IMG/VR virus record: IMGVR_UViG_2671180770_000020
Location: 1 to 37,086 of that record
Reading direction: 5' to 3' (one strand)
DNA: 37,086 bases
Origin: a virus
Taxonomy: Duplodnaviria; Heunggongvirae; Uroviricota; Caudoviricetes
Both the position numbers and the translations under genes were made by a program. The notes below the pieces were generated by a model. It ran no database searches. It saw nothing but the letters and a program-made list of their open reading frames with translations, and had not been told where the DNA came from. Shown in pieces: positions 1-33,999 of the stretch. Position 1 is the first letter of the stretch. The number at the start of each line of letters is the position of its first letter.

Positions 1-243
1 ATGCGCCGTACAACCAGTACGTTGTTGCATGAGGCTGGTTATCCTTCAGACTGGATTGAAAAGGCTCTGGCACATGAGCAGAAAGGTGTGCGCGCCGTAT
101 ATAACAAAGCGGAATACGCCAGACAGCGCGCCTACATGTTGCAGCAGTGGGCCGATATGATTGATTCCTGGATTAACGGGGAGCATACGGATCTGATTCC
201 GTTCTCCCCGTCGAAGTTTGAGAAGTGGATGGCGGGGGAATAA
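1..243 (+). CDS. int: Tyrosine integrase, C-terminal fragment (5' part lies outside the window)
   Basis: ORF open from the window edge to TAA at 241-243; sequence ...HEAGYPSDWIEKALAHEQKGVRAVYNKAEY... resembles the C-terminal catalytic region (terminal Tyr) of P4/CP4-57-type integrases. Confidence 0.75.
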   Translation: MRRTTSTLLHEAGYPSDWIEKALAHEQKGVRAVYNKAEYARQRAYMLQQWADMIDSWINGEHTDLIPFSPSKFEKWMAGE

Positions 244-3432: not shown

Positions 3433-4017
3433 TTATTGTTTGCTTTTTTCGTTCTGGTTGATGACAAATTCAATGTAACTTTCGATCTTTGCTTTCTCGG
3501 TTTCGGGTAACAATGCGTAGCGTGAGCGGTCATAGTTGATAGTCGCAGGGTCGTGCGGGTGAATCAGTAGTTCATATCCGTGACGCCCGAATGCGGATGC
3601 AACATTCTCCAGGGTGGAAATGGAAACGCTGACCTCATTGTTTAACAGGCGACTGATTGTCACCTGGGCGACGCCGGATGCGCGGTGAAGTTTTCCCTGC
3701 GTTGAAAGGTCGCGGCTTTCGCTCATCCAGCGTTCCAGGTTGTGAGCCGCCAGCTGACCAATGTCGCTTGGGCCGACAGGCTGAAAACCTTCCTGAGAAA
3801 GCGAGCGATCGATATCAAGCCAGTTACGGGGTTTATTGGCGGCAGCTTCAATTTTTCGCGCAACCTGGTCGCCGATAACCTTCTTGCCAAGAGCCCAGCG
3901 GTTTACCAGATTTGCCTGAGTTCCAAGTTTTTCTGCCATCCGCGTCTGAACACCATTGAATTCACGGTCGATCAAGTCGTTGAGATTTTGCCTGCGGACG
4001 TCCTGGATACTTTTCAT
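3433..4017 (-). CDS. Prophage repressor (CI-like) with HTH_XRE domain(s) and no S24/LexA-type peptidase domain
   Basis: 194 aa; N-terminal Cro/CI-type HTH (...QTRMAEKLGTQANLVNRWALGKK...); a second HTH-like segment (...VTISRLLNNEVSVSISTLENVASAFG...); no Ala-Gly cleavage site or Ser/Lys peptidase motif seen; divergent from the cro-like gene. Confidence 0.7.
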   Translation of the reverse strand: MKSIQDVRRQNLNDLIDREFNGVQTRMAEKLGTQANLVNRWALGKKVIGDQVARKIEAAANKPRNWLDIDRSLSQEGFQPVGPSDIGQLAAHNLERWMSESRDLSTQGKLHRASGVAQVTISRLLNNEVSVSISTLENVASAFGRHGYELLIHPHDPATINYDRSRYALLPETEKAKIESYIEFVINQNEKSKQ

Positions 4018-4402: not shown

Positions 4403-4424
4403 TATCCAGCCACAACCCTCTGTA

Positions 4425-4448
4425 GACCGCCATCCGGCGGTCTTTTCA
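4425..4448 (+). terminator. Intrinsic terminator just downstream of the cro-like gene (tR1-like position)
   Basis: GACCGCC-atcc-GGCGGTC followed by TTTTCAT. Confidence 0.55.
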
Positions 4449-4457
4449 TATCTATTC

Positions 4458-4472
4458 GTACCTCAAAGGTAA
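4458..4472. promoter_or_regulatory. Near-perfect copy of the palindrome (gTACCtcaaaGGTAA)
   Basis: Directly downstream of the 4425-4448 terminator and upstream of the 4553 gene. Confidence 0.4.
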
Positions 4473-4552
4473 TAAAAAACCAAATCTGGTTGATCTTTTT
4501 TTTGTGTCAGCACAAAATGACCGTAATCCCAATACTAATAACAGGGCTTACC

Positions 4553-4753
4553 ATGGAAATCATTACACGTATTGATGCCGCAAAGCGCGGACTTAAACGC
4601 TACTACACCGGAAAAACATGTAAGCACGGACATGACAGTGAACGCTGGGTTTACAACGGACACTGTGTTGAGTGCACCATGGAATCAAACCGTCGTATCA
4701 GGGCAGAGATTAAGCAGATCATGATTAATTCCTCCCCACAACATTCAAGCTGA
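4553..4753 (+). CDS. Small Cys/His-rich (zinc-finger-like) protein
   Basis: 66 aa from ATG 4553; CKHGHDSERWVYNGHCVEC motif. Alternative starts at 4517 or 4490. Confidence 0.4.
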   Translation: MEIITRIDAAKRGLKRYYTGKTCKHGHDSERWVYNGHCVECTMESNRRIRAEIKQIMINSSPQHSS

Positions 4754-4768
4754 TAGCGGAGATTAATC

Positions 4769-5584
4769 ATGAGCAGACATGCAACAGATTGGGCCTGGGA
4801 GACAGATCCAGGTAGCTCATCATTAAAGCTCATACTGCTCTCGATGGCTGACAGAGCCGATGAATATAACCTCTGCTACCCCAGCATAGAACGCCTCGTT
4901 AAAGACACTTGCCTGAATAAAAAAACCGTGCAGGCCGGGCTTATATCGCTCATGAAAATGGGGCTTATTTCAGATACCGGAGAGAGAAAGGGAGCGACAA
5001 AAAGAGTGCGGGTTTTCTCTCTTAATATAACCAAAAACGGGAACATTAAAGGCAACCGGGAGGGGGGCAATGAACCCGAAAACGGTAATGTTACCGAAAA
5101 CGGGAATATACCCAAAAACGGGATGTTGAATGATCCCAAAAACGGGATGTTGAATGATCCCAAAAACGGGATCCAGAACCAGTCATATAACCAGTCATTT
5201 AACCAAGAGAGGGAGAGCAGGACAAAAAGCGGGGATTCTGTGCCTCATGACCCCGGAGCAAACAACGCCGTGATGAATAACTTTGTTCCTCCTGGTGGGC
5301 CAGGGCAATTAGGCAAATTTGTCATGCATGAACAATGGCAGCCATCAGATGACTTTCTTCGGAAAAGCTCATTGCAGGGGATCTACCTGGACAGTCTGCC
5401 AACGGCACAGGAACTTGCAGAGTTCAGAATTTACTGGATGGCTGAGGGTAAGGCATACCATCAGGCACAGTGGGAGCAGAAGCTGGCAAGGCGGCTGCAG
5501 ATTAGCAGACAGAAGCAATCAACATTACCTGATAACAACGTTCCGCACTGGAACAGCCCTGAAGCATGGGAGGATTTCTTGTGA
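4769..5584 (+). CDS. Replication initiator (lambda O-like; iterons lie inside the gene)
   Basis: 271 aa, GGAG before ATG 4769; coding sequence contains the iteron array and is followed by the P-like gene, as in lambdoid ori/O/P modules. Confidence 0.6.
   Translation: MSRHATDWAWETDPGSSSLKLILLSMADRADEYNLCYPSIERLVKDTCLNKKTVQAGLISLMKMGLISDTGERKGATKRVRVFSLNITKNGNIKGNREGGNEPENGNVTENGNIPKNGMLNDPKNGMLNDPKNGIQNQSYNQSFNQERESRTKSGDSVPHDPGANNAVMNNFVPPGGPGQLGKFVMHEQWQPSDDFLRKSSLQGIYLDSLPTAQELAEFRIYWMAEGKAYHQAQWEQKLARRLQISRQKQSTLPDNNVPHWNSPEAWEDFL
5031..5170. repeat. Iteron array (putative origin of replication)
   Basis: Six copies of CC(C/G)AAAACGG(G/T) at about 5031, 5076, 5094, 5111, 5135, 5159; the last three have 24-bp periodicity (cccaaaaacgggatgttgaatgat x2), followed by an A/T-richer stretch. 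Confidence 0.6.
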
Positions 5585-6371: not shown

Positions 6372-6391
6372 GCGCGATAGCGCATTTTTTT
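6372..6391 (+). terminator. Weak intrinsic terminator after the P-like gene
   Basis: GCGC-gata-GCGC followed by ATTTTTTT; the stem is only 4 bp. Confidence 0.35.
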
Positions 6392-6403
6392 ACGTCTATA
6401 TGA

Positions 6404-6480
6404 TTACCTTATAGGTAATAAAATATTCTAATTTCTATTGATTTCATGTCTTATGTGGTTTTTAATTACCTAAGGGGTAA
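6404..6480. promoter_or_regulatory. Two perfect TTACC-N5-GGTAA palindromes (6404-6418, 6466-6480) upstream of the 6484 gene
   Basis: The second copy ends 3 nt before the ATG and overlaps the ribosome-binding region. Confidence 0.5.
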
Positions 6481-6483
6481 ATC

Positions 6484-8349: not shown

Positions 8350-8892
8350 ATGACCACTATTACCAAAGAACGTATCAAATTATTCATTAAAAATCCGCTT
8401 GATAACGGACTTACTCGTGGCGAACAAATGGAACTGGCACGAATTGCACTGGCATCACTGGAAGCCGAACCTGTAAGCCAAGCTTACAACTTGCCAGAAT
8501 TAATCGAAGGCATGGAAGTTTCCATTGATGTAAGCACTTGTGATGCTGATTTCGGTAATCGCTATTTCGGCACCGTCACCGAGGCGTTAGAACTTGATAC
8601 AGCCAAGAATGGTTACATCCTCCTGGTTCAGGACGCAGAGCCAAACTTCGATGTAAATGGCAACTATCCGGTAACTCCGGATGGCTGGATAAGCTGTAGT
8701 GAGCGAATGCCGGATACCAAAACAGCCGTTCTTGTTGCCGTGGAGTTTGACAGGAAGGGTGACTGGCGAATGAAATGGGCTACTTACATCCCGGGGCATC
8801 CTGACGCTAATGATGGGTGGATAATTCCTGGTGCGTCGTGGAAACCGTCACACTGGATGCCGCTACCAGAACCGCCGCAGGAGGTTAAGTGA
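8350..8892 (+). CDS. Hypothetical protein with C-terminal DUF551-like region
   Basis: 180 aa; C-terminal W/P-rich segment (...GWIIPGASWKPSHWMPLPEPP...). Confidence 0.45.
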   Translation: MTTITKERIKLFIKNPLDNGLTRGEQMELARIALASLEAEPVSQAYNLPELIEGMEVSIDVSTCDADFGNRYFGTVTEALELDTAKNGYILLVQDAEPNFDVNGNYPVTPDGWISCSERMPDTKTAVLVAVEFDRKGDWRMKWATYIPGHPDANDGWIIPGASWKPSHWMPLPEPPQEVK

Positions 8893-9014
8893 TGAACAAG
8901 TGCAACGCTCTGCTTTATGCCATGGTGATTGGTTTCGGCCTGGCTGCTGGTATCCGGGTTTATATTACCTGGGAGTCATTAATCAATCTGGCGTGGAGTG
9001 CGATTCGTGGCTAA
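8892..9014 (+). CDS. Small hydrophobic protein (40 aa)
   Basis: Hand-translated MNKCNALLYAMVIGFGLAAGIRVYITWESLINLAWSAIRG; ATG overlaps the preceding stop. Confidence 0.3.
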   Translation: MNKCNALLYAMVIGFGLAAGIRVYITWESLINLAWSAIRG

Positions 9015-9345
9015 ATCCCCCGCAGAACGCAAAGCCGCGCAGCGCGCTCGGCAGTCCGCCGCCGGTGAGCGCAAAATTGAACTGGTGCTGGATAAGCAGG
9101 AGCAGGAAATGCTGGCGCGGAACTGCGCCGCCCGGCGCCCTGGTCGCGATCCCTATGAAATGGCCGAGTACATCGCGCTGCTGATCCGCCAGGATGATGC
9201 ACGTGTGCGCGGGCGTATAAAATCGATCAGCAGAAAACGTTGCGGTAAGTGCGGCGAGAGAGTTCCAGTTAATTCATGCCCGTGTAATGGTGACTCGCAA
9301 TGCTGGGTGACTAAAGGCTGGCATGAAACGAAATTAATAGTGTGA
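9007..9345 (+). CDS. Basic protein with C-terminal Cys-rich zinc-ribbon motif; candidate late-gene regulator
   Basis: About 112 aa from GTG 9007; ...CGKCGERVPVNSCPCNGDSQC...; last early-side gene before a terminator and the terminase genes. Confidence 0.4.
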   Translation: MAKSPAERKAAQRARQSAAGERKIELVLDKQEQEMLARNCAARRPGRDPYEMAEYIALLIRQDDARVRGRIKSISRKRCGKCGERVPVNSCPCNGDSQCWVTKGWHETKLIV

Positions 9346-9394
9346 CATGTCACGAGTGGATTATGCATGATGAATTTGACGGGTTTTGAATACT

Positions 9395-9420
9395 GCCGCC
9401 AACTATGGCGGCTTTATTTT
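9395..9420 (+). terminator. Intrinsic terminator upstream of the terminase genes
   Basis: GCCGCC-aactat-GGCGGC followed by TTTATTTT. Confidence 0.6.
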
Positions 9421-9431
9421 GCATGGTACTA

Positions 9432-9464
9432 TTACCACAACGGTAACTATTACCACGGTGGTTA
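9432..9464. promoter_or_regulatory. Tandem palindrome copies (TTACCacaacGGTAA 9432-9446; TTACCacggtGGTtA 9450-9464) directly upstream of the small terminase start
   Basis: Located between the 9395-9420 terminator and ATG 9464. Confidence 0.45.
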
Positions 9465-10060
9465 TGATGCCTGCTGAACCTAAAACCTATAAACGCAAAT
9501 CAACGCAATTTAAGCCGCTCACAGCAATGCAGGAGGCTTATTGCCAGTCATACATCAAAACGCCTGAAAACCAGACTCAGGCAGCGATTAACGCAGGATT
9601 CTCCCCAAATACAGCGGCAGTTAAAGCCAGTGTCATGATGCGCGATGAACGCATTCAAAAACGGATTGCCGAGTTGATGGAGGAGCGCAACAAACGAATG
9701 CGCGTCAGTGCTGATTACGTTCTCATGCGCCTGGTGGAGATCGACCAGATGGACGTGATCGACATCCTCAACGACGATGGGAGCCTTAAGCCAATCCGCG
9801 AGTGGCCGAAAATCTGGCGCACTACGCTTAGCGGCTTTGATCTGTCATCGACCATCATGAACATGAACGAGGATTCGATAGAGACAATCCTCAAAAAAAT
9901 TAAATGGCCTGACAAGGTGAAGAACCTCGAACTGATTGGTAAGCACGTCGACGTCAACGCGTTCAAAGAACGCCTGGATGTTAATGTGAATGTGACAATT
10001 GCTGATCGCATAGCGGCAGCCAGGAAGCGACTCAAAGAACGTCAGGATGGTAATCAGTGA
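9464..10060 (+). CDS. Terminase small subunit
   Basis: Directly upstream of and overlapping (GTGA) the large terminase; start set at ATG 9464 because the TTG start at 9386 in the ORF track would read through the terminator hairpin. Confidence 0.6.
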   Translation: MMPAEPKTYKRKSTQFKPLTAMQEAYCQSYIKTPENQTQAAINAGFSPNTAAVKASVMMRDERIQKRIAELMEERNKRMRVSADYVLMRLVEIDQMDVIDILNDDGSLKPIREWPKIWRTTLSGFDLSSTIMNMNEDSIETILKKIKWPDKVKNLELIGKHVDVNAFKERLDVNVNVTIADRIAAARKRLKERQDGNQ

Positions 10061-11526
10061 CAGATACAGCGTTATCTCCTGAAGAGCAGTTGATCGAGGA
10101 TATTGCAGGGTTCACTCACGATCCGCTTGGCTATGCCCTCTATGCGTTCCCGTGGGGGGAAGAGGGGACTGAACTGGCACATGCCACCGGCCCACGTCAG
10201 TGGCAAGCCGATGCGTTCCGAGAGATACGTGATCACCTGCAGAATCCAGAGACGCGCTATCAGCCGCTTATGCTGGCACGCGCTTCGGGGCACGGTATTG
10301 GTAAATCAGCATTCATCTCAATGCTGATCAACTGGGGCATGTCCACTTGCGAGGATTGTAAGGTCGTGGTGACCGCCAACACCGACAACCAGCTACGAAC
10401 GAAGACCTGGCCGGAAATTATCAAGTGGTCGAACCTTGCTATCACGAAAGACTGGTTTACCTGTACCGCTACCGCGATGTACAGCAATGACCCTGGGCAC
10501 GACAAACGGTGGCGGGCTGACGCAATACCCTGGTCTGAGCACAACACTGAGGCATTCGCCGGACTACACAACGAGCGCAAACGCATCATCGTGGTATTCG
10601 ATGAAGCGTCGAACATTGCGGATCTGGTGTGGGAAGTTGCTGAGGGTGCGCTTACGGACGAAGACACTGAGATTATCTGGGTGGCGTTCGGAAACCCTAC
10701 ACGTAATACCGGGCGTTTTCGCGAATGTTTCCGCAAATACAAACACCGCTGGAAAACTGCGCAGATTGACAGCCGGACGGTGGAAGGTACTAACAAACAG
10801 CAGTTGCAGAAATGGGTTGATGACTACGGGGAAGACAGCGACTTCGTTAAAATCCGTGTGCGCGGCATATTCCCTGATGCATCTGAATTGCAGTTTATCC
10901 CTACCGGTCTTACTGATGAGGCAATGAAACGGGTGGTAACCGCTGCGCAGGTGGCACATGCTCCGGTGATAATCGGTGTTGACCCGGCATATTCAGGCGT
11001 TGATGACGCGGTGATATACCTGCGGCAGGGGTTGCATAGTAAGGTGCTATGGACTGGCAACAAGACCACTGACGATCTGATTATGGCGAAGCGTATCGCT
11101 GACTTTGAAGACCAGTACCAGGCTGACGCAGTGTTCATCGACTTCGGTTACGGAACTGGTCTGAAGTCAATCGGTGACGGCTGGGGTCGTACATGGCAAC
11201 TTGTTCCGTTCGGTGGCGTGTCTACTGACCCGCAGATGCTCAACAAGCGTGGGGAGATGTTCAACTCATGTAAGACATGGCTGAGGCTGGGCGGGATGCT
11301 GGATGACCAGGAAACAGCGGACGATCTGTCTGCGGCAGAGTACAAAGTTCGCGTGGACGGTAAAATCGTTATCGAACCGAAGGAAGATATCAAAGAACGA
11401 CTTGGGCGTTCACCTGGTAAAGGCGATGCGCTACTGCTGACGTTTGCGTTCCCGGTAGCCAAGAAAACTAATGACCCACGGCAGCAGCAGGGCAGGGCTA
11501 TAACAGACTATGACCCATTTGAATGA
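10057..11526 (+). CDS. Terminase large subunit
   Basis: 489 aa; Walker A-like ...ARASGHGIGKSAF...; acidic nuclease-type C-terminal half; GTG start overlapping the small-subunit stop. Confidence 0.8.
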   Translation: MTDTALSPEEQLIEDIAGFTHDPLGYALYAFPWGEEGTELAHATGPRQWQADAFREIRDHLQNPETRYQPLMLARASGHGIGKSAFISMLINWGMSTCEDCKVVVTANTDNQLRTKTWPEIIKWSNLAITKDWFTCTATAMYSNDPGHDKRWRADAIPWSEHNTEAFAGLHNERKRIIVVFDEASNIADLVWEVAEGALTDEDTEIIWVAFGNPTRNTGRFRECFRKYKHRWKTAQIDSRTVEGTNKQQLQKWVDDYGEDSDFVKIRVRGIFPDASELQFIPTGLTDEAMKRVVTAAQVAHAPVIIGVDPAYSGVDDAVIYLRQGLHSKVLWTGNKTTDDLIMAKRIADFEDQYQADAVFIDFGYGTGLKSIGDGWGRTWQLVPFGGVSTDPQMLNKRGEMFNSCKTWLRLGGMLDDQETADDLSAAEYKVRVDGKIVIEPKEDIKERLGRSPGKGDALLLTFAFPVAKKTNDPRQQQGRAITDYDPFE

Positions 11527-11529
11527 TTT

Positions 11530-12378
11530 TTACTTTTGTGTTTTTGATTTTCTTTGATAGGTGGAATTTAAATCACCATTTATATTTACTAGAGGATTAT
11601 TCAATAATGTACTGATTTCTGGATTGTTAATTCCAGTAACGCCAAATTTCTTTACGGACTCATTAAGGTCTTGTAATGATTTTAGACCTACAAACCCATT
11701 AGCAATTGTATTATTTGTTGCCAAAGGAATGTTTTCCTTATAGGACTCATATTCGTTTTTTAAATTTTTGTGAGCTTTTTCTAGATTTTCTAGTTTAGAT
11801 GTTGTTTCATCAATAACCTTAGATAATTCTAAAATACGAGCTTGTGCTGCGCGCAGTTCTGTCTCCCTCTCTTTCAATTCAGATGTGAGTTGTCCCATTC
11901 TGTCTTTTGAAAGAATTATTTCCTCTTTCATGTCTTGAATGTTTTTTTCAGCGCCTGTTTTTACTTTTTCGTAAGTAATGTCTTTTTTAGCCAGCAATCT
12001 CTGTAGCCGTGTTTCACGTTGTATTTTTCTTGCCTTCCGGTGGTTTTCGATTGAGTCATTATTATCAAGAGGTTTTGCTTGCCATACGTTAATGATATTG
12101 TTTACCCATGGTAATAGGCAGCAGATAGTAATTACAGATAAGCATGGATAAAACATAACAGTTTTCCATGTGCTGTTATCTGAGATGTATGAAATTTTAT
12201 CTATTATATTTGATTTGCTAAAAAACAGATAAAGAAGTGATTTCCAGTTGAAGGCGCACCAGGACATAACAAAAGCACCAAGCACAGGGTTTTTGGCTCT
12301 ATGCACGGCAGTGTTTGCAGTAGATAAAAACAGCTCTTTGAACGATTCAAACATACTAATTACCTTAAAGTTTTTCAT
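11530..12378 (-). CDS. Moron: membrane-anchored coiled-coil protein of unknown function
   Basis: 282 aa from ATG 12378 (MKNFKVI...); markedly AT-rich relative to neighbours; opposite strand to the flanking late genes; two hydrophobic segments then a long Lys/Glu-rich coiled coil; own terminator and palindrome upstream. Confidence 0.55.
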   Translation of the reverse strand: MKNFKVISMFESFKELFLSTANTAVHRAKNPVLGAFVMSWCAFNWKSLLYLFFSKSNIIDKISYISDNSTWKTVMFYPCLSVITICCLLPWVNNIINVWQAKPLDNNDSIENHRKARKIQRETRLQRLLAKKDITYEKVKTGAEKNIQDMKEEIILSKDRMGQLTSELKERETELRAAQARILELSKVIDETTSKLENLEKAHKNLKNEYESYKENIPLATNNTIANGFVGLKSLQDLNESVKKFGVTGINNPEISTLLNNPLVNINGDLNSTYQRKSKTQK

Positions 12379-12382
12379 GATT

Positions 12383-12397
12383 ATACCTTTAAGGTAA
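12383..12397. promoter_or_regulatory. Near-perfect palindrome copy (aTACCtttaaGGTAA) abutting the moron start
   Basis: A minus-strand TATAAT overlaps the site just upstream of ATG 12378. Confidence 0.4.
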
Positions 12398-12410
12398 TTT
12401 GTGGTCATCA

Positions 12411-12436
12411 GGCAAAAAAATACCCGGCGAACCGGG
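12411..12436 (-). terminator. Intrinsic terminator between the tRNA and the moron
   Basis: Minus strand CCCGG-ttcg-CCGGG followed by TATTTTTTTG. Confidence 0.5.
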
Positions 12437-12515
12437 CGAACTGGAAGCAATGAGTTATGCCTTCCGTGGCTGTACTGGTTTACAGCATGAAGTCATCGCA
12501 ATGGCGTCCTGCTGT

Positions 12516-12557
12516 AAAAAGGGCGGTGATAGTCCTTCAAGGGAAACTATCACCGCC
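12516..12557 (-). terminator. Intrinsic terminator immediately downstream of the tRNA
   Basis: Minus strand 12-bp stem GGCGGTGATAGT / ACTATCACCGCC followed by CTTTTTT. Confidence 0.65.
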
Positions 12558-12600
12558 AAGCACCTGGAACTTCTGGCATCACGGTCCTTAGGCGTGATTC

Positions 12601-12677
12601 TGGCGTGGCATGCAGGATTCGAACCTGCGACCAACCGCTTAGAAGGCGGTTGCTCTGTCCAACTGAGCTAATGCCAC
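12601..12677 (-). tRNA. tRNA-Arg (anticodon UCU), 77 nt with encoded CCA
   Basis: Hand-folded cloverleaf: acceptor GUGGCAU/AUGCCAC, D-arm GCUC-AGUUGGACA-GAGC, anticodon arm ACCGC-CUUCUAA-GCGGU, variable loop UGGUC, T-arm GCAGG-UUCGAAU-CCUGC, discriminator G, CCA. Confidence 0.9.
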
Positions 12678-13015: not shown

Positions 13016-13105
13016 TAATTCGTGCGTTAAATGTCAACTATCTACGATAAATAAATCATATGTGGTTAAATTGGTAATAATTTAATTGCGTACGGAGTCA
13101 TTGAT

Positions 13106-29279: not shown

Positions 29280-29576
29280 ATGCAAGCGATAGGATTCATT
29301 GTTTATATCGTCGTTGGCCTTTTTCAGTTGGCAGCAATTATGGCTGGGCTTGAATCATGGTGGGGATTGCACTGGATAATTGCAGCCCCCATTGCTTTCA
29401 TCGTGAGCTATATTCCATTTGTTGGAGCGATTGTTGGTATGGTTGGCGCTGTGGATGTATGGCGGTGGGAGTGGTGGCAGGCTGGCCTTCTCTTCTTTGG
29501 TGGGATCATCTTTGCTATTGTCTGCGGTGGAATGTCATCATTTTTCGAACGGCTATCATTCAGAAAAGGAACGTGA
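29280..29576 (+). CDS. Integral membrane protein (98 aa, about 3-4 predicted TM helices)
   Basis: AGGTGA upstream of ATG 29280; strongly hydrophobic with Trp-rich loops; followed by a terminator. Confidence 0.5.
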   Translation: MQAIGFIVYIVVGLFQLAAIMAGLESWWGLHWIIAAPIAFIVSYIPFVGAIVGMVGAVDVWRWEWWQAGLLFFGGIIFAIVCGGMSSFFERLSFRKGT

Positions 29577-29585
29577 CATGTCACA

Positions 29586-29609
29586 GGCCGCTTTCGCGGC
29601 CTTGTTTTT
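29586..29609 (+). terminator. Intrinsic terminator after the membrane-protein gene
   Basis: GGCCGC-tttc-GCGGCC followed by TTGTTTTT. Confidence 0.55.
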
Positions 29610-29648
29610 AACGAATGCCACCGCCGCCCGGGCGGGAATCCGCAGACA

Positions 29649-30314: not shown

Positions 30315-30352
30315 ACATCACCTCATAATATAGAAACTTCATTAAACGGGAT

Positions 30353-30432: not shown

Positions 30433-31083
30433 TCAGAAGAACCCTGCCTTGTCGTTGATGTATTCCGCGTGAGTCTGGATATCACGCAGGCATTTGCTCA
30501 CACCGACGATGTAGCAGAACATGGTGGTCAGCTCCGCCGCCGCGCCCGATACATCGTGCCCGTCTTCCTGTAACTGGTTCAGCAGATTCATCAGCAGTGA
30601 GTTCTCCGTCAGGCCGAGAACACCAGATGGGGAATGAATCAGACTGCGGTAGCCGGGCTTCAGCGGTGCACTGTATTCTTTTTTGTCTTCCAGCTTGATC
30701 GCCTCCATAATGGCTGGCATGAAGCCTGACAAGACCTTCTCCACTTTTGTTTCTTGTTGTCTTAAACGTTTCTCGCATTCAATGAAGTAGCGTCGCACCT
30801 GGCGACCTTTTTCGTTACGCTCGACCATCGCCAGCTCTTTGGCTGTATCGAGGGTGAGGTGGTAGTCTTTTGCAGGACGGCCTCTGCCTATTTTTTCCCG
30901 AACTTGGGAAATAATCATAAAGTCTTGATTTTCAACGAAACCATATTCAGCAATTCGTTCGACAATCCACGAAGCAAATCGCTTACCCACATCGAGGAAA
31001 GTGTGTAAATCACGGGCATTAACGAGAAGAGCGGTTTCGTTGGATATAGTGCCGTTGAATACGGGGATGAGTTGAGCGTTCAT
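30433..31083 (-). CDS. Antirepressor (AntA-type N-terminal domain)
   Basis: 216 aa; N-terminal ...LIPVFNGT...NARDLHTFLDVGKRFASWIVERIAEYGFVENQDFMI... matches the remembered AntA/AntB antirepressor domain; GGAG upstream of ATG 31083. Confidence 0.7.
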   Translation of the reverse strand: MNAQLIPVFNGTISNETALLVNARDLHTFLDVGKRFASWIVERIAEYGFVENQDFMIISQVREKIGRGRPAKDYHLTLDTAKELAMVERNEKGRQVRRYFIECEKRLRQQETKVEKVLSGFMPAIMEAIKLEDKKEYSAPLKPGYRSLIHSPSGVLGLTENSLLMNLLNQLQEDGHDVSGAAAELTTMFCYIVGVSKCLRDIQTHAEYINDKAGFF

Positions 31084-31240
31084 TATGGCGTCTCCACTTA
31101 GCGAATTACATCACCACCGCTGAGACCAATCAGATGGTGGTGAACTGAACGGAGTTGGTCTTACCGGCCTAAGTGGTACCGGCGTCCTTTCGGACCCCCA
31201 TTCAGCCCACCATAATTCTGGCATGACTGTGCTATACGCA

Positions 31241-31263
31241 TAAAAAAACCACGTCTGGCGTGG
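31241..31263 (-). terminator. Intrinsic terminator between the small Ant-like gene and the antirepressor gene
   Basis: Minus strand CCACG-ccaga-CGTGG followed by TTTTTTTAT. Confidence 0.45.
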
Positions 31264-31354
31264 TATGCGCCACTTAGTAATCCGGGAGACCAATCCCGGC
31301 ACTGGATTTTGCCAGTGCCCGATTACTATGGCACAAGAGGAGTGCGATGTAAAT

Positions 31355-31400: not shown

Positions 31401-31658
31401 TTATCTGGTTTGTTTTCGTAATTGTTCGGCACAATAGTCGAGATGTGTTTGCAGATCCTGCATAGACATCTGTGAGCTGGTGACGTAGTTAATCAGTGCA
31501 GTCAGTTCGGCAAGTGGGCCATCGACATTAAATCCATCCTTATCGAGATCCCGGAGTAATTTCATCAAGTGCGATCCCTCCACCAGTGACCTGACGCCTC
31601 CCGGCGTGTGAATCCTTTCGGTAAATCCCTCTTCCAGTGGATAGTGATACTGCTGCAT
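31401..31658 (-). CDS. Small protein (85 aa) paralogous to the C-terminal domain of the adjacent antirepressor; LexA-box-associated
   Basis: MQQYHYPLEEGFTERIHTPGGVRSLVEGSHLMKLLRDLDKDGFNVDGPLAELTALINY...DLQTHLDY aligns by eye with antirepressor residues about 130-205 (...YSAPLKPGYRSLIHSPSGVLGLTENSLLMNLLNQLQEDGHDVSGAAAELTTMF...DIQTHAEY); GGAGAAG upstream of ATG 31658. Confidence 0.6.
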   Translation of the reverse strand: MQQYHYPLEEGFTERIHTPGGVRSLVEGSHLMKLLRDLDKDGFNVDGPLAELTALINYVTSSQMSMQDLQTHLDYCAEQLRKQTR

Positions 31659-31679
31659 CTTATCTTCTCCATGCAATAA

Positions 31680-31695
31680 CTGTATAAATATACAG
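31680..31695. promoter_or_regulatory. LexA (SOS) box CTGT-N8-ACAG
   Basis: aaCTGTATAAATATACAGta at 31678-31697, a near-consensus match to TACTGTATATATATACAGTA, 22-37 nt upstream of the small Ant-like gene start on the transcribed side. Confidence 0.7.
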
Positions 31696-31734
31696 TAGCA
31701 AATAATTTGTTTGCTATCCAGCACGTTTTGCGAA

Positions 31735-31749: not shown

Positions 31750-31853
31750 TATCTGTTCGTATTTATGGGTTATCTATCCATATATGGTTTTTAAGGTAAT
31801 AGAATAACCGGATATGCGGCGCAACGGGTGCTGCGACTATCTGGAGATTTAAC

Positions 31854-33848: not shown

Positions 33849-33999
33849 TTGTTTTTAGATTGCGACTAAAAATCGCAATCTAAAAAACACAAATGATGAT
33901 TTTGTTGTTTACTTATAACATAATAATTCATATATGGTTTGGTTTTGATGGTGTTCTACCAGAAACTGGAGATTTGATGAATGTTAAATGGTGGTTGAT

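Follow-up and report, generated by a model that had tools for sequence, protein, structure and literature searches.

How are the packaging genes of an integrated phage kept in check, and which protein controls the entry to them? The question is raised by positions 9007 to 9467 of IMG/VR virus record IMGVR_UViG_2671180770_000020 (Caudoviricetes), the 37,086 nucleotides (nt) of which were analysed as a whole and are called the window here. At this locus, a gene for a basic protein of 112 amino acids (aa), an intrinsic terminator and two tandem palindromes follow one another up to the start of the small terminase gene. The first-pass annotation had regarded the locus as a control region at the terminase entry, laid out as a Q/tR'-type antitermination or activator switch with an extra operator input. 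We likewise find a control region at this entry, and the supposed extra turns out to be its main feature: positions 9431-9465 most likely comprise two sites, a strong one (O1) and a weaker one (O2), to which Rep, the lysogeny repressor of the prophage itself, is predicted to bind. Direct control by Rep of the terminase entry, downstream of the terminator, is in our judgement likely. The reference record of epsilon15 already shows a terminator and a repressor operator before the terminase.

Judged by nucleotide identity and gene order, the window is a Uetakevirus (epsilon15/phiV10/SPC32H-like) prophage of the phiV10 lineage. Positions 8800-10100 are 94-99% identical to the Escherichia Uetakevirus-type phages EC.W1-9, TL-2011b and phiv142-3, and phiV10 falls in the same range over the part of this region that its record covers; the identity to epsilon15-like Salmonella and Enterobacter phages is ~78-86%. 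Genes are arranged in the Uetakevirus order, i.e., repressor region, replication, nin-like region, terminase, portal and structural genes, tailspike and lysis.

Predicted repressor operators at the terminase entry

The elements needed for the following argument are:

3433 to 4017, minus strand: repressor Rep (predicted), the expected binder of O1 and O2; E=3.5e-42 to SPC32H Rep (PDB 5D50_A)
6403 to 6481, no strand: predicted Rep operator pair 62 bp apart (6403-6419, 6465-6481), heading the operon closed by the 9007-9345 gene and the terminator
9395 to 9420, plus strand: intrinsic terminator closing the nin-like operon, with its stem at 9395-9412 and T-tract at 9413-9420
9431 to 9447, no strand: predicted operator O1, ATTACCACAACGGTAAC, 1 mismatch to ATTACC-N5-GGTAAT; its epsilon15 counterpart is annotated as a repressor site
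9449 to 9465, no strand: operator-like O2, ATTACCACGGTGGTTAT, 1 mismatch (GGTTAT half); weaker and lineage-specific
31401 to 31661, minus strand: SPC32H-type antirepressor Ant; E=1.4e-47 to PDB 5D50_E

The tandem palindromes were first placed at 9432-9464, which is the core of their true extents, 9431-9447 and 9449-9465. In the epsilon15 record (NC_004775), seven features are labelled 'protein_bind: repressor', and their sequences yield the consensus ATTACC-N5-GGTAAT; one of them (12..27) directly precedes the small terminase gene and comes just behind a terminator that the record gives at its end. Allowing up to 2 mismatches, this consensus occurs 16 times in the window compared with 1.17 expected, a number reached by none of 100 shuffles, and 10 occurrences have at most 1 mismatch. 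Well-matched sites are found to the left (3298, 3360) and to the right (4072) of rep, before the nin-like operon (6403/6465), the small terminase gene (9431/9449) and the portal operon (13000), at 30352, and at 31734 between ant and the tailspike gene. The same syntenic set of operators, including the site before the small terminase gene, is present in epsilon15, phiV10, PAT1, Tyrion and SPC32H.

The pair at 6403/6465 brackets a promoter-like TTGATT-17-TTTAAT, has the same 62-bp spacing as the left operator (OL, 3298/3360), and has syntenic counterparts in epsilon15, PAT1, Tyrion and SPC32H. Three times along the rightward operon, a terminator is followed by an operator 13-19 nt later (4424/4457, ~6372/6403 and 9395/9431), so that 4424-4473 and 6372-6481 form two further units of terminator and predicted Rep operator.

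The small terminase of several pac phages attaches to repeats that lie within its own gene or next to it. As the repeats at 9431-9465 abut the small terminase gene, they could be read as such a packaging recognition site. We reject this reading because the identical motif also flanks the repressor gene, as OL and as the right operator (OR), and precedes at least five other operons; furthermore, the depositors of epsilon15 ascribed it to the repressor. We give a packaging site next to no credence.

A terminator-O1-O2-ATG module of fixed length recurs in 77 loci, and 24 distinct versions were seen in a wider scan. Across these 24 variants, ATTACC and GGTAA of O1 are unchanged, its last base is C or T, and three of its five spacer positions vary. 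Two loci (L049 and L235) have no terminator, and another gene abuts there; O1 is nonetheless kept, at the same distance to the start codon. The left half of O2 is kept in the E. coli lineage and reads ATTACT or ATTGCT (with GGTAAC) in the Salmonella lineage. O2 overlaps the Shine-Dalgarno sequence GGTGG (9457-9461) and adjoins the start codon.

The expected partners of these sites are encoded in the window. The match of Rep to the crystallised SPC32H repressor (5D50_A) takes in the N-terminal DNA-binding region, and a LexA box (TACTGTATATTTATACAGT, 31679-31697) lies upstream of ant, which is divergent from the tailspike gene. In SPC32H, Rep is said to be a tetramer that is removed by LexA-controlled Ant. 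What the motifs are, how many there are, where they lie and how they are conserved can be read directly from the window and its relatives, as can the presence of Rep and Ant. Next to ant, Rfam matches to C4 antisense RNA and to the isrK Hfq-binding RNA were found at 31133-31217 and 31242-31318, both on the minus strand and upstream of a BRO/KilAC-type antirepressor-like open reading frame (ORF; 30433-31083, minus strand). Judged by these matches, C4, isrK and the BRO/KilAC-type ORF look like a P1 immI-like module that exists besides the SPC32H-type Ant.

Start and transcription of the small terminase gene

Between the operators and the packaging genes, and upstream of the terminator, the following features matter:

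9363 to 9389, plus strand: 8-codon ORF remnant (MHDEFDGF*), recognised by comparison with L014-type loci
9424 to 9432, plus strand: putative -35-less extended -10 promoter TGgTACTAT, proposed from its conservation pattern
9467 to 10060, plus strand: small terminase subunit (Terminase_2), start revised to the second ATG; PF03592, E=1e-29
10057 to 11526, plus strand: large terminase subunit, overlapping the 3' end of the small-subunit gene

The assignment of the small terminase is secure by score (104 bits to PF03592 at a gathering cut-off of 26), and its start could be refined. A start at TTG 9386, as given by automatic ORF calling, had been doubted before and is implausible because translation would run through the terminator hairpin and the operators. 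The replacement suggested at that time, ATG 9464, did not stand up to comparison either: this codon is ACG in L012, ATT in L038 and ACA in epsilon15, PAT1, Tyrion and SPC32H, whereas the second ATG at 9467 is invariant among relatives. GGTGG lies 5 nt from 9467 and 2 nt from 9464. EC.W1-9, TL-2011b and epsilon15 annotate a start homologous to 9467, and phiV10 annotates the long TTG form. From the invariance of 9467, the loss of 9464, the spacing to GGTGG and the annotation of relatives, we therefore conclude that translation most likely starts at ATG 9467, one codon after 9464.

As to the terminator, the earlier proposal is borne out. A stem of 7 bp, of which 6 are G-C, closes a loop of 4 nt, and TTTATTTT comes after it at 9413-9420; the folding energy is -13.8 kcal/mol (z = -4.4). 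The element is kept in the 77 loci, and the records of epsilon15 and phiV10 mark it as a terminator; by these features it is an ordinary end-of-operon terminator. The spacer between the 112-aa gene and the terminator measures ~23 nt in the epsilon15 lineage and up to ~240 nt among relatives. About 30 related loci carry a complete small accessory ORF here, most of which is deleted in the window and the phiV10 lineage, leaving the remnant at 9363-9389. From this comparison, the spacer in the window is a deletion scar rather than a conserved control element. Its only promoter-like match, GTGACA-18-CATGAT at 9342-9371, is weak, takes its -35 from one half of a palindrome described below, and is not conserved in relatives. 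An Rfam scan yielded no match within 9000-9500; tRNA, isrK and C4 are the only matches elsewhere in the window. In locus L049 (2182-2640) and in L091/L092 (Citrobacter, Pseudocitrobacter), a LexA-box promoter and the UmuD-like ORF that it drives lie between the palindrome of the regulator gene and the small terminase gene; in these loci the terminator is gone and O1 is retained.

Where, then, does terminase transcription begin? Just after the terminator we noticed TGgTACTAT (9424-9432), which overlaps O1 by two bases and resembles an extended -10 promoter. Among the 24 variants, TG and TA are invariant, as is AT, which is however part of O1. The 'n' base and hexamer positions 3 and 4 vary, and the hexamer is improved by this once to TACAAT and once to TATTAT. 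Five of the ten positions upstream of O1 are variable, and all four key positions are spared (hypergeometric p~0.024). L049 and L235, in which the terminator is absent, also retain the TG-n-TA motif. This pattern is suggestive of an extended -10 promoter, not proof of one, and we put the chance that the terminase genes are transcribed from 9424-9432 at about even.

The scheme that we favour for the Uetakevirus junction, where the nin-like operon with its 112-aa gene and terminator meets the packaging genes, is as follows. In the lysogen, Rep on O1 and O2 would shut the terminase genes while the terminator would shield them from upstream transcription. Upon SOS induction, loss of LexA would lead to synthesis of Ant, Ant would strip Rep from its operators, and the terminase genes would be transcribed from the putative -35-less promoter TGgTACTAT, the -10/+1 region of which O1 would overlap. 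If this promoter is real, transcription would start near 9439, with O1 over -10/+1 and O2 over the leader, a classical geometry of repression. Physical binding of Rep, the promoter and repression are what we infer from the motifs and their placement. The 112-aa protein would be dispensable for this scheme and probably binds GTGACATGTCAC at its own stop codon.

Several points weigh against this scheme. Beyond the E. coli lineage, O2 shows poor conservation as an operator, and its conserved core GGTGG doubles as the Shine-Dalgarno sequence. The operator assignment combines the annotation of the epsilon15 record with motif statistics, and a single operator type is found in all relatives examined. 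A consensus scan for -35/-10 promoters gave no match between the terminator and the ATG, the hexamer of TGgTACTAT fits 4 of 6 positions, and such motifs are common by chance. A full-text literature search for a Uetakevirus transcriptome study returned none.

The outcome of the promoter scan would fit an attenuator with a roadblock, in which the terminase genes have no promoter of their own and are reached solely by read-through of 9395-9420. Transcripts of the nin-like operon would come from the rightward promoter PR (~4118) and a Rep-controlled promoter (~6435-6463), terminase would be kept at a low, catalytic level, and Rep on O1/O2 would just stop stray read-through in the lysogen. The terminase genes do lie directly downstream on the same strand, the terminator is of moderate strength with its 7-bp stem, and the layout of terminator and operator recurs along the operon. 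Yet TG-n-TA..AT is conserved at exactly the promoter-critical positions, and this motif and O1 persist in L049 and L235 despite the lost terminator and the abutting gene. Furthermore, the upstream promoters already bear Rep operators, so that a roadblock would gain little in the lysogen. We thus consider the attenuator possible but doubtful.

The palindromes might also act at the RNA level, by forming a leader hairpin in which the Shine-Dalgarno sequence and both AUGs are buried, so that translation of the small terminase subunit is throttled. Indeed, 9421-9475 folds at -20.7 kcal/mol (z = -3.9), with ACCAC paired to GUGGU, which contains the Shine-Dalgarno sequence, and with the AUGs paired. 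Such a fold is, however, expected of any pair of DNA palindromes; compensatory changes were seen at 0 of 15 consensus pairs (14 variants), and the same 17-bp motif occurs at at least 10 non-leader sites, including those around rep. A regulatory hairpin therefore strikes us as quite improbable, and repression by Rep at the DNA level stays our preferred reading of O1 and O2.

A further motif, CATATRTGGTT, is found upstream of the portal (13057-13067), tailspike (31779-31789) and lysis (~33939-33949) genes and of the nin-like operon (6449-6459, CTTATGTGGTT). Its copies at the portal and tailspike regions are conserved across five phages, and upstream of the small terminase gene a motif of this type is absent. 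CATATRTGGTT may mark a common class of promoters that have no good -35 element.

The 112-aa protein and the GTGAC-N2-GTCAC palindrome

Three features bear on the role of the protein encoded upstream of the terminator:

9007 to 9345, plus strand: gene of the 112-aa basic protein, predicted ribbon-helix-helix (RHH) with a C-terminal Cys-rich zinc ribbon; epsilon15 gp49 / PhiV10p55 family, phrog_536
9342 to 9353, no strand: 12-bp perfect palindrome GTGACATGTCAC over the TGA stop of the 112-aa gene, a predicted, probable binding site
29573 to 29584, no strand: second GTGACATGTCAC copy, over the TGA stop of the last ORF of the structural operon

The rightward nin-like operon closes with this gene, the GTG start of which (9007) agrees with the N-termini of homologues. 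The gene product was described at first as a basic protein with a Cys-rich tail, and this description fits: the isoelectric point (pI) is 9.7, with 24 lysines and arginines versus 14 aspartates and glutamates; cysteines are at 40, 79, 82, 91, 93 and 99 and a histidine at 106. Among 61 distant homologues, C79 and C82 are invariant and C99 is nearly so. Searches of Pfam and NCBIfam returned no match at E<=0.1, Q families included, and none of the known regulator families (Q, Ogr and others) was recovered by Pfam, NCBIfam or PDB sequence searches; PHROGs labels the family just 'transcriptional regulator'. In a structure model built on 61 diverse homologues (mean predicted local distance difference test, pLDDT, 92.4), the fold appears to be RHH followed by a zinc ribbon. 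This model supersedes an earlier one from a shallow alignment (pLDDT 67), the Foldseek matches of which were meaningless. TraR chains gave a profile E=0.03 and an hhalign probability of 66% over the C-terminal half, both below significance; neither fold search returns TraR or DksA, and a relation to these proteins remains a weak lead. Homology to MatP is not significant (hhalign probability 0.5%).

Could this protein be the late switch, acting either as a Q-like antiterminator past 9395-9420 or as an activator of a terminase promoter? Its position invites the idea, as its gene is the last before the terminator and the terminase genes, and its probable DNA site at 9342-9353 is 42 nt upstream of the terminator. 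Other copies of the palindrome in Uetakeviruses also adjoin terminators, and in Vibrio phage K233 the small terminase ATG is preceded by one at a distance of 19 nt. In addition, the regions upstream of the portal, tailspike and lysis genes have no good -35 elements, and some activator may therefore exist. In a Q system, however, the stretch from the Q gene to the terminator has to hold a promoter and a Q-binding site, and no conserved promoter is found in this spacer; together with the lack of a match to Q or any other known activator family in Pfam and NCBIfam, this led us to abandon the Q/tR'-type layout proposed at the outset. The distance from palindrome to terminator moreover ranges from ~23 to ~240 nt, and read-through at the other two palindrome-terminator pairs would enter convergent genes. 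SPC32H and SPN1S are viable with an altered copy in which the N-terminal basic helix is replaced.

Nor does the gene keep the company expected of a late switch in other phages. Homologues coexist with Q-like proteins and lie far from late promoters in ZF40 and phiKO2: in phiKO2 the homologue sits amid a nin-like region downstream of the Q gene, and in Pectobacterium phage ZF40 it is upstream of the Q-like gene. In a Yersinia P2-like phage the homologue ends the early operon, and in a Vibrio siphovirus lysis genes separate it from the small terminase gene. Altogether, we hold it to be improbable that the 112-aa protein is the late switch.

What the gene does keep is the palindrome. GTGAC-N2-GTCAC is expected ~0.04 times per genome, with P(>=3)~1e-5. 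Phage genomes with the gene contain one to three copies; for epsilon15, SPC32H, ZF40 and K233, with three each, the expectation is 0.03-0.05. In Uetakeviruses, the copies flank the terminase operon and end the structural operon, in every case next to an intrinsic terminator. In epsilon15 (L083; 2142, 19517 and 39612) and in SPC32H, one copy follows the regulator gene, another the large terminase gene and a third the structural operon, the latter two being beside terminators. PAT1 has copies in the same three places, with AG as central dinucleotide at the large-terminase copy, as does Tyrion when a copy spanning the record ends is counted. In phiV10, the regulator-gene copy is mutated (GTGACATGTTAC), leaving two exact ones. 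The window has lost the large-terminase copy and has a reverse-strand insert in that place. Its copy at 29573 lies 1 nt before a terminator (29585-29610) at the end of the structural operon and has syntenic counterparts in epsilon15, phiV10, PAT1, Tyrion and SPC32H. The insert itself spans 11530-12677, 3' of the large terminase gene, where relatives have a terminator and the third palindrome copy; it holds an ORF of 306 aa (11530-12450) that has no significant Pfam match and a tRNA-Arg(TCT) at 12601-12677.

The association extends far beyond Uetakeviruses. In 24 of 31 diverse loci with unrelated downstream DNA, the site lies within 40 nt of the stop codon, and in 21 of 27 species-representative bacterial genomes, chosen to carry a homologue at 50-88% identity, it is found -1 to +13 nt from the stop, with two more genomes one base off. 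The DNA past the palindrome is unrelated between the loci of this set, and the central dinucleotide is AT, AC, AG, CT or GT. Gene and site occur together in prophages of Escherichia, Salmonella, Klebsiella, Pantoea, Xenorhabdus, Serratia, Pectobacterium and Yersinia. ZF40 (L238) has the site 2 nt after the stop and three exact copies in 48 kb (5125, 7622, 14944); the Yersinia P2-like phage has GTGACGCGTCAC over the stop as the single copy in its genome, and phiKO2 has GTGACTGGTCAC over the stop. In K233 (L241), where the homologue is 35% identical, three copies are present (21342, 33227, 35942), two of them exactly 19 nt upstream of start codons, one being that of the small terminase.

The site thus stays beside the gene, mostly with additional copies elsewhere in that genome, despite full turnover of the surroundings, and the gene therefore most simply encodes the binder of the site: from this linkage, GTGAC-N2-GTCAC is probably the binding site of the 112-aa protein. 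We propose more tentatively, and with somewhat less than even confidence, that the protein is the first recognised member of a phage family of RHH and zinc-ribbon DNA-binding proteins (phrog_536) with GTGAC-N2-GTCAC as cognate site. A literature search for the 12-mer GTGACATGTCAC returned no paper. As the Uetakevirus copies adjoin terminators, the protein could control how much transcription passes the ends of operons, or could bridge sites as MatP bridges matS. The positions of the copies in ZF40 and K233 fit no single simple rule.

Two observations in the early region of the window may be added. Downstream of the cro-like gene, a small ORF at 4553-4753 encodes a CxxH...CxxC zinc-finger-like protein (MEIITRIDAAKRGLKRYYTGKTCKHGHDSERWVYNGHCVEC...), which by this pattern is another candidate regulator. 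Within the replication-initiator gene (4769-5584), 5119-5162 holds two identical 20-mers (TGGGATCATTCAACATCCCG, reverse strand) 24 bp apart; they are iteron-like and may mark an origin.

Implications and comparison with known systems

What remains of the locus is a corrected start codon, a putative Rep-controlled promoter that can be tested, and a probable new pair of protein and site. The first is a matter of annotation: the small terminase should be given from ATG 9467, and the TTG start as in phiV10 is wrong. As to the second, Rep appears at the head of most transcription units, including the packaging, portal and tailspike operons. This flat architecture is unlike the lambda cascade and predicts that removal of Rep by Ant opens the whole genome at once. 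The RHH-zinc-ribbon protein and GTGAC-N2-GTCAC, if truly a pair, would add a new regulator to those of phages and would raise the question why a phage site mimics the half-sites of matS.

Closest to the window are epsilon15 and SPC32H, the Rep/Ant switch of the latter being summarised in PMC9638917. In both, the same 17-bp palindrome stands between a rho-independent terminator and the small terminase gene; OL, OR and the heads of other operons carry further sites, and Rep and Ant are homologous. The second copy, which is degenerate in these Salmonella phages, is well matched in the window, as part of the phiV10 lineage, and covers the ribosome-binding site; a further difference is the deletion scar that separates the upstream gene of the window from the terminator.

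The lambda Q/PR'/tR' module is alike in that a terminator stands ahead of the late genes and the last gene in front of it codes for a small zinc-containing protein. However, Q has no relation in sequence or fold to the 112-aa protein, the family of which coexists with genuine Q-like genes in other phages. Lambda moreover has a promoter and a Q-binding element before the terminator, whereas the window has neither and the spacing is variable among relatives.

With DksA and TraR, factors that bind RNA polymerase, the 112-aa protein shares a weak profile similarity over a helix and CxxC-G-x2-(L/I)P...G...C; they carry a C4 finger CxxC...CxxC, whereas the second knuckle of the phage protein has no CxxC. 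The remaining comparison is with MatP and matS of E. coli. The matS site reads GTGAC-RNY-GTCAC, and prophages otherwise avoid this motif (PMC3603311). The phage palindrome has the same half-sites but a spacer of 2 nt instead of 3 nt, and the 13-bp matS was found in none of these phages. MatP has a coiled coil where the phage protein has the zinc ribbon, and its four-helix bundle is absent from the phage protein. Hence, the two pairs of protein and site agree in fold class and half-sites only.

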